Positions 52,783-53,310 of a stretch of 64,000 nucleotides of DNA are shown in pieces. The stretch lies in the NCBI RefSeq assembly GCF_030013205.1, contig NZ_CP122648.1. One strand, written 5' to 3'. Source of the DNA: Escherichia coli. GTDB taxonomy: Bacteria > Pseudomonadota > Gammaproteobacteria > Enterobacterales > Enterobacteriaceae. The position numbers and the translations under genes are program-made. The notes under the pieces are model-generated. The model did no database searches. It was not told the origin of the DNA and was given only the letters and a program-made list of their open reading frames with translations. How positions within the stretch are numbered: the stretch's first letter is position 1; every line of letters starts with the position of its first letter.

Positions 52783-53310
52783 TCATTGATGGCCTGATTT
52801 TTCCCACTCAGCCAGGGCGTTTAGTCCGGCTTCACTCCAGTTATCCAGCTCATCGGGACAATCACCTGCAACATAGCAGAGCTCACAACGCAGCATACGA
52901 ATTGCCAGCCTGGCATTTTCCCGAAAATCATACTGCTCAAAGTAATATTGCCCAGCATAATCCTCAAGGCAGATAGCACCATCATCAAGAAATTGCACTT
53001 CACAGCATAGTTCCCCGGCTGCATCCTGTACACGCTGCTGTATGTCATTGTCCGTTACTGGTGCAGGGATTTTACCGTCTCTGGCCTTAACTGCTTTCCA
53101 GAACTCGCCCCACGTCATTTCCAGCGTTCTCTCTGGCCACATTTCAGAAACTGTGTCTTTTCCCTGTGCTGGTGGGCTGTTCCGCTGCTCTGTCGCTTCC
53201 ACATCGATTTTTTTACCGGACATGACCACTTCGCCTTTCTCGATCCAGTCGTAAACTGTCTGGCGGCTTACGCCTTTGTGTTTGGCATATTCTGCCTTGC
53301 TCATAAACAT
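52783..53310 (-). CDS. winged-HTH (excisionase/MerR/Nu1-type) DNA-binding protein with Cys-rich C-terminal region
   Basis: 175-aa ORF; N-terminus SKAEYAKHKGVSRQTVYDWIEKGEVVMSGKKI has the GVSRxTVYxWIxxGK pattern of excisionase/AlpA/terminase-small-subunit HTH domains; C-terminal half holds 7 cysteines including CELC. Confidence 0.5.
   Translation of the reverse strand: MFMSKAEYAKHKGVSRQTVYDWIEKGEVVMSGKKIDVEATEQRNSPPAQGKDTVSEMWPERTLEMTWGEFWKAVKARDGKIPAPVTDNDIQQRVQDAAGELCCEVQFLDDGAICLEDYAGQYYFEQYDFRENARLAIRMLRCELCYVAGDCPDELDNWSEAGLNALAEWEKSGHQ

Follow-up and report, generated by a model that had tools for sequence, protein, structure and literature searches.

Phage satellites of the phage-inducible chromosomal island (PICI) type spread virulence and defence genes at high frequency and, to our knowledge, the only packaging-hijack mechanism understood for the PICIs of Gram-negative bacteria is that of Rpp with lambda-like helper phages. 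Rpp binds the small terminase subunit (TerS) of the helper and redirects it to the cosB sequence of the PICI cos1 site, as has been shown experimentally (PMC6739421). Rpp also hinders packaging of helper DNA and favours that of the satellite. In phage lambda, the small terminase gpNu1, for which a nuclear magnetic resonance structure is available (1J9I, cited in PMC6739421), reads several short R-type sites beside its own gene, and SaPIbov5 is a cos-type satellite carrying the cos of its helper (PMC6092414). Here, we describe a gene encoding a 175-aa protein and a downstream array of short DNA sites, located in a ~13 kb island within a 64,000-nucleotide stretch of Escherichia coli DNA (contig NZ_CP122648.1 of assembly GCF_030013205.1), referred to as the window. 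Gene and array appear to form one portable satellite module, and our leading, still tentative proposal, to which we give slightly less than an even chance, is that this module sets packaging specificity in a manner analogous to Rpp with cosB or to a satellite TerS with pac. The coordinates of the features are summarized in Table 1.

The sites of the array conform to the consensus RSTTKACACTTTT, which was derived from 49 sites and in which conservation reaches positions outside the search pattern. TTKACAC is found on the plus strand at positions 52492, 52521, 52567, 52576, 52632, 52713, and 52767 and on the minus strand at 52735 and 52742, giving nine TT[GT]ACAC sites within 52492-52773 where ~0.04 would be expected (P ~5e-19). 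When relatives were retrieved by the protein alone (identity down to 34%, with Pantoea, Raoultella, Serratia, Pseudocitrobacter, Lelliottia, Enterobacter, and Mangrovibacter included), two to nine such sites were observed shortly past the stop codon in 14 of 15 cases, compared with a chance level of ~0.1-0.2 sites per 800 bp; over this range of identity the linkage of gene and array spans eight or more genera. A scan of IMG/VR that was blind to the protein and used the 16-mer TTGACACTTTTTCGCG returned 80 loci, 73 of which carried a homologue and one a truncated copy, and the 16-mer was always located 17-330 bp downstream of the stop codon of the gene. Site density was 5.6 per 500 bp by the gene and 0.047 elsewhere (69 IMG/VR loci). 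Gene and array travel together as a block, whereas flanks, replication modules, and cos differ. No further array-type sites are present elsewhere in the satellite, and the sites, being confined to the array, thus do not represent a dispersed regulon. Judged from these sequence comparisons, the gene and its downstream array are one portable module of a PICI-type satellite.

A single TTTACAC at 51724, in a conserved cos block, has flanks that deviate from the extended consensus and was taken as a chance occurrence, and no Rfam family was found in the array region. A second repeat, CTTAG-N5-CTTAG, with half-sites ~10 bp apart, lies between the TTGACAC sites (52499-52513, 52543-52557, and ~52598-52620) and a TTTTTCGCGAAAAA tract often lies between the two kinds of repeat. 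Enterobacter relatives have this composite unit as well (L005:8790-9200), and the CTTAG repeat may be a candidate site for a second protein.

The island is flanked by yejO on one side and by tRNA-Pro/yejM on the other. It encodes an integrase, AlpA, an Icd-like protein, a RepA-type helicase with adjacent iterons, ProQ/FinO, and PerC, followed in order by a block of DUF2213, 205-aa, and 679-aa genes, the 175-aa gene, the array, a 59-aa open reading frame (ORF), a hairpin, cos, and attR. Taking a PICI to be an island of ~10-15 kb at a tRNA or attachment (att) site, with int, alpA, pri or rep together with an origin (ori), a packaging site of helper type, and no full virion module, we assign the island to the PICI-type phage satellites on the basis of its layout, its AlpA, its rep gene with iterons, its att site, a phiP27-type cos, and synteny with EcCICFT073. 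The AlpA gene, which the original prediction had already noted as a separate gene of the element, was confirmed by its Pfam match (Table 1). EcCICFT073 was found in the genome of CFT073 (L035), where rppA, encoding 144 aa (L035:7660-8094), is the penultimate gene and is followed by three ATGTCCGGTT repeats, a lambda-type cosN, and then a 93-aa ORF. The 59-aa ORF of the window is homologous to this 93-aa ORF (BLASTP E=2e-6; both match phrog_1561 and phrog_7271), which places the 175-aa gene in the rpp slot and the array in the position of cosB. In a minimal relative (L016), the array-linked gene is preceded by nothing more than int, a P4-type primase, and a few genes of unknown function, and with so sparse a gene set the module is the obvious packaging candidate there. 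The two cos sites of EcCICFT073 constitute an inverted 77-nt duplication around rppA (L035:7529-7605 and 8263-8339), with the ATGTCCGGTT repeats on the downstream side of the gene only.

The position, minus-strand orientation, and 175-aa length originally assigned to the gene were confirmed by the ORF call. We count the ORF as a real coding gene kept by purifying selection, since the ratio of nonsynonymous to synonymous substitutions (dN/dS) is 0.05-0.40 across five E. coli alleles. The annotation of the E. coli ETEC4079 chromosome, which is 100% identical to the window with a one-base difference in length over 12.6 kb, lists the gene product as a hypothetical protein. All of the 68 homologues identified are within Enterobacterales; no phage in INPHARED has one, and in 50,697 phage records neither the protein (tblastn) nor the array (blastn) had a meaningful match. 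Places covering at least 80% of 51480-53310, from cos through the gene, are found in only 9 of 5,426 E. coli genomes.

An AlphaFold2 model made from 30 homologues, with a mean predicted local distance difference test score (pLDDT) of 89.3, consists of a winged helix-turn-helix (wHTH), a disordered linker, and an alpha/beta domain, the latter modelled at pLDDT >90 with extra strands beside an alpha-beta3-alpha core. The recognition helix is unchanged in all 30 homologues, in agreement with the unchanged site of the array. Matches to known families are confined to residues 1-42, and the best of these is to phrog_57, 'terminase small subunit' (E=5.4e-7, profile positions 11-57 of 199). This is the lambda Nu1-type family, which a prophage Nu1-like TerS matches over its full length (11-189, E=5e-65). 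Cox-like and excisionase families score weaker, with 17.7 bits for TIGR01764 (cutoff 28.8), the match to Pfam HTH_17 is marginal (E=0.003), and no MerR family was found at E<=10 in Pfam or at E<=1 in NCBIfam. The early assignment of the N-terminus to the wHTH common to AlpA/Xis and Nu1-type small terminases thus holds. Matches restricted to the N-terminus in Bacteroidales and Lachnospiraceae were set aside as unrelated HTH proteins.

For the C-terminal domain, Foldseek of the model against viral models gave nothing significant, and a profile of the domain retrieved just 34 clusters among 1.84 billion representatives, nearly all of equal architecture. As modelled, the domain is confidently predicted and has no informative relative. 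It evolves faster than the N-terminus and its alleles recombine; in E. coli at least three classes of C-terminal alleles are present with clear recombination (window 52783-53037 vs L033 and L034), and the synonymous divergence (dS) of L033 and L034 is 0.04 in the N-terminal half of the gene and 0.99 in the C-terminal half. A protein observed on 19 E. coli contigs (P0051) is a fusion of an AntA/AntB antirepressor N-domain with residues ~86-175 of the family, which makes the C-terminal domain a separable module that can be joined to another N-terminal domain.

Compared with Rpp (RppA/B/C, PDB 6HN7; PMC6739421), the 175-aa protein is found in the same type of satellite, as the last core gene, located beside the packaging region and ahead of a homologous small ORF, with an N-terminal Nu1-type wHTH mimicking the DNA-binding domain of lambda TerS and with repeats after the gene. 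The best PHROG of RppA is also phrog_57, again through the N-terminal wHTH only. However, whole-protein homology to RppA/B/C was not found. BLASTP against RppA (E=3e-4) covers only residues 2-26 in the HTH, hhalign of the 30-sequence alignment against a 14-sequence Rpp alignment joins 28 columns of the HTH (probability 59%, E=9e-5), there is no homology past these ~28 residues, and phmmer against the PDB gave no match to 6HN7. Rpp has 144-153 aa and a helical C-terminus with a long coiled-coil dimerisation helix, whereas AlphaFold2 predicts an alpha/beta domain for the 175-aa protein. Likewise, the three ATGTCCGGTT repeats abut a lambda-type cosN, whereas the nine TTGACAC-type sites have no adjacent cosN, and the gene is not located beside a cos composed of a lambda-type cosN and a PICI-specific cosB, the equivalence being in the slot and the small ORF. 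The two proteins were also mutually exclusive in the loci examined, as Rpp is absent from the 17 loci with the 175-aa gene and from the IMG/VR relatives (0/73), and the Rpp element is without the 175-aa gene.

With lambda gpNu1, the protein shares the wHTH subtype, a similar size, and short sites beside its own gene, but it is without the central self-assembly region and the C-terminal TerL-binding region. No full-length match to Nu1-type small terminases was obtained, and the element has no terL beside which the gene could lie. Excisionases and Cox-like proteins (Pukovnik Xis 4J2N, P2 Cox 4LHF, RdfS 8DGL, and AlpA) are much smaller and have no extra domain; the 175-aa protein scores under the family cutoffs (TIGR01764, PF05930, PF12728), is not a small single-domain protein, and has its array far from att rather than on att arms. 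It also differs in architecture from MerR proteins, with their HTH profile, long dimerisation helix, and effector region. By these comparisons, the family is not part of the Rpp, Nu1, excisionase, or MerR families.

A redirecting or packaging role for the protein and the repeats was part of the original prediction, and gene-array linkage and the rppA position have made it the leading hypothesis, although it is still one that we infer. It is favoured by the equivalence of the rppA slot, the shared phrog_57 behaviour, and the mutual exclusion with Rpp, as well as by the linkage of gene and array, their block inheritance, and the lack of sites elsewhere in the satellite. In the mechanism we propose, the RSTTKACACTTTT sites would be bound by the wHTH, which is of the lambda Nu1/Rpp type and would assemble a nucleoprotein complex on the satellite DNA, while the variable C-terminal alpha/beta domain would contact a packaging protein of the helper, be it the small or large terminase or HNH. 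The helper terminase would then be drawn to the satellite concatemer, probably away from helper DNA. A fast-evolving and recombining C-terminal domain is as expected for a surface that contacts such a partner. The family is satellite-specific and had not been characterised before, and the function proposed for it is of a kind already known in satellites, as for Rpp or TerS.

The cos of the window bears on this proposal. An 82-bp stretch is 87% identical to the annotated cos region of the Stx2e phage phiP27, including a block of 45/45 identical nucleotides, and the motif is also found at the physical ends of Burkholderia phages. It lies within a ~435-bp segment (51687-52121) that the relatives L007, L008, and L034 are without, and this segment looks like a cos cassette inserted in the satellite backbone. 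E. coli 83972 and STEC346 are examples of strains with relatives that have no phiP27 cos. From this distribution, the phiP27-type cos would be lineage-specific and the gene-array module the conserved feature. In carrying a phiP27/HK97-type cos with 45 nt identical to a phage, the element of the window resembles the SaPIbov5-type satellites, but its cos is such a lineage-specific insertion and the module is present in relatives without a recognisable cos.

Several of these observations weigh against a packaging role. The phiP27-type cos is ~730 bp from the array, beyond the small ORF, and by the orientation of phiP27 the array is on the side opposite to cosB. In this cos, the conserved block to which an HK97-type TerS would bind is already present (PMC11331095), so that it would require no redirection. 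The C-terminal allele of L008 is identical to that of the window although L008 is without the phiP27 cos, and tracking of this cos by the allele is thus not supported. A Nu1-like DNA-binding domain would point to a lambda-type helper, yet no lambda cosN was found in or near the element with up to two mismatches. Among the IMG/VR relatives, 0/73 have a cos of lambda, P27, or P2 type, and for relatives without a recognisable cos the packaging proposal must assume a headful or a novel-cos mechanism. In addition, we found no similarity of the C-terminal domain to Rpp or any TerS, and no paper in the literature naming the accessions of the protein or an HK97-type Rpp. A G-rich spacer of the array, considered as a hidden cosN, was rejected because it is unconserved in L034 and the 73 relatives have no lambda, P27, or P2 motifs. 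The helper-type TerS L35 of phiP27 shows no similarity to the protein and belongs to another TerS family, phrog_83.

The main rival to a packaging role, possible in our view but rather unlikely, is that the protein is a MerR/Xis-like wHTH transcription factor and the array an operator for the small ORF or for a late switch, with no direct part in packaging. The wHTH fold is common to the BldC and MerR regulators, and PGAP labels some alleles 'MerR family transcriptional regulator', a name that reflects the HTH only, as no MerR match is obtained in Pfam or NCBIfam. The array extends through the entire intergenic region as far as the 59-aa ORF and its start codon, yet it persists in most other genera though the small ORF is absent downstream. 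A TTGACA hexamer is found inside the site; however, a sigma-70-like promoter was looked for in the array and none was detected, and there are no sites at the other promoters of the element. An operator of nine sites that stretches across 290 bp and lies downstream of the gene for the regulator itself would also be odd.

Less probable still is another DNA-protein assembly, for example a centromere-like site for maintaining the episome after excision, or a decoy titrating a protein of the helper or host. In the sopB-sopC locus of the F plasmid, the gene of a DNA-binding protein is followed by a multi-site array, which the present arrangement resembles, and the interleaved CTTAG-N5-CTTAG repeats suggest binding of a second protein. 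However, neither a ParA-type ATPase nor any other partner gene is conserved alongside, and the array is without a counterpart in phage genomes.

A recombination directionality factor (excisionase) that binds att-arm repeats is very unlikely. The array is ~1 kb from the att core (51477-51490), the integrase arm repeat, GTAGCTA, is different, and the array was ruled out as a set of att-arm sites on these two grounds. The element moreover has its own AlpA, the TIGR01764 score is below cutoff, the protein is two to three times the size of Xis, and the module does not change between elements whose integrases and att sites differ.

Also very unlikely is a role in replication, with the protein as initiator or origin-binding factor and the array as ori. 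The array is iteron-like, and an initiator gene beside iterons is a common plasmid layout, but in these satellites iterons adjoin each rep gene and change with the rep type, namely TCCTCAC beside the RepA helicase in the window, GAGACAAC beside DUF927 in L007, and CTGTTCAC beside a P4-type primase in L008, whereas the TTGACAC array is identical in all three. The array was thus ruled out as the replication origin. In EcCICFT073, the pri-ori region has been shown to support plasmid replication (PMC6092414).

The original prediction had counted seven Cys and proposed a metal-binding C-terminal half. The protein has six, CELC included, and in the 30 homologues positions 102, 103, 114, 142, and 151 are mostly G/N, W/Y, Y/W, R, or mixed residues, C145 is kept in 29/30 close homologues and replaced by S, A, T, L, or I in distant family members, and certain homologues have one Cys only. 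A Cys-based zinc domain, suggested by the six Cys of the window allele, can practically be dismissed, as the conserved set of three or four Cys/His ligands of, e.g., Ogr/Delta-type domains is not found and the predicted fold is an ordinary alpha/beta domain (pLDDT >90) with C142 and C145 on one helix rather than in a zinc knuckle. A metal-binding domain was ruled out by this lack of Cys conservation, an outcome that the original prediction had itself named as refuting, and the protein would thus not be a metal-binding protein.

Among the other genes of the island, the cargo block upstream of the 175-aa gene (53362-56763, minus strand) contains a DUF2213 head-protease-like gene, the 205-aa gene, and the gene of the 679-aa protein, which combines a membrane-like, glycine-rich segment with a lytic transglycosylase domain and resembles tape-measure or ejection proteins. 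All three proteins are in PHROG families of unknown function. The block also occurs in phages Rac-SA53 and vB_Apl-pPE4 and is unusual as satellite cargo; Pantoea relatives have Dit-like and other unannotated genes at its place. Near att, a palindrome TTATGGGAATCCCCATA followed by CATATCGGCATC is found in the window (51662-51678), in EcCICFT073 (L035:8975-9000), and in L007 (2868-2884), and is conserved also in relatives with different integrases. The related satellite of E. coli 83972 has, between its small ORF and att, an inserted gene for a 662-aa 'RNA-binding domain-containing protein' (L034:6719-8707), which is likely an accessory or defence cargo gene.

Table 1. Positions of the gene-array module and of other features of the satellite (window coordinates unless a locus is given).
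Feature	Position	Strand	Basis or remark
175-aa gene, wHTH and novel alpha/beta domain	52783..53310	-	ORF call, homologues, dN/dS, AlphaFold2 model
wHTH, residues 1-44	53179..53310	-	recognition helix GVSRQTVYDW
Linker, residues 45-60, low confidence, variable length	53131..53178	-	pLDDT <50 at 46-54; indel-rich alignment columns
Alpha/beta domain, residues 61-170, double-stranded RNA-binding domain-like alpha-beta3-alpha core	52801..53130	-	fast-evolving, recombining alleles, Cys unconserved
Array of 9 sites, consensus RSTTKACACTTTT	52492..52779		CTTAG-N5-CTTAG repeats interleaved
59-aa small ORF	52310..52489	-	homologous to 93-aa ORF after rppA and cos in EcCICFT073
Palindromic terminator-like hairpin, operon end	52181..52202		
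phiP27/HK97-type cos, core GACGGGGCGGGCGGTCCC at 51736-51753	51709..51790	+	segment absent from close relatives
attR: tRNA-Pro 3'-end copy 51477-51490 and integrase arm-type repeat 51552-51577	51477..51577		alignment with int-proximal arm
Replication-origin iterons TCCTCAC	58923..59116		adjoin RepA-type helicase gene 59114-60529 (-)
Iterons of near-identical satellites	window 58923-59116; L007:9900-10235; L008:9819-10076		differ with replication module
AlpA regulator of satellite	62697..62903	-	Pfam Phage_AlpA E=5.5e-8

Many satellites without Rpp or a recognisable cos, in Escherichia, Enterobacter, Pantoea, Serratia, Raoultella, Lelliottia, and other genera, have this family in the Rpp slot. 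If the protein were a regulator instead, the finding would be an ordinary one. In a wider and more speculative interpretation, which we consider doubtful, gene and array may be a self-contained and hitherto unrecognised packaging-recognition cassette of Enterobacterales satellites, with a Nu1-like reader, a new partner domain, and a multi-site landing pad that serves with any type of cleavage site. Satellites could then exchange or acquire cos cassettes such as the phiP27-type one of the window, or rely on headful helpers, with a single recognition module retained throughout, and the gene-array cassette would represent a second, mechanistically distinct answer to the problem solved by Rpp. As a packaging determinant, the module would explain how such satellites are mobilised and by which helpers, and the protein with its ~300 bp array would provide a compact cis/trans pair for the engineering of transducible DNA.
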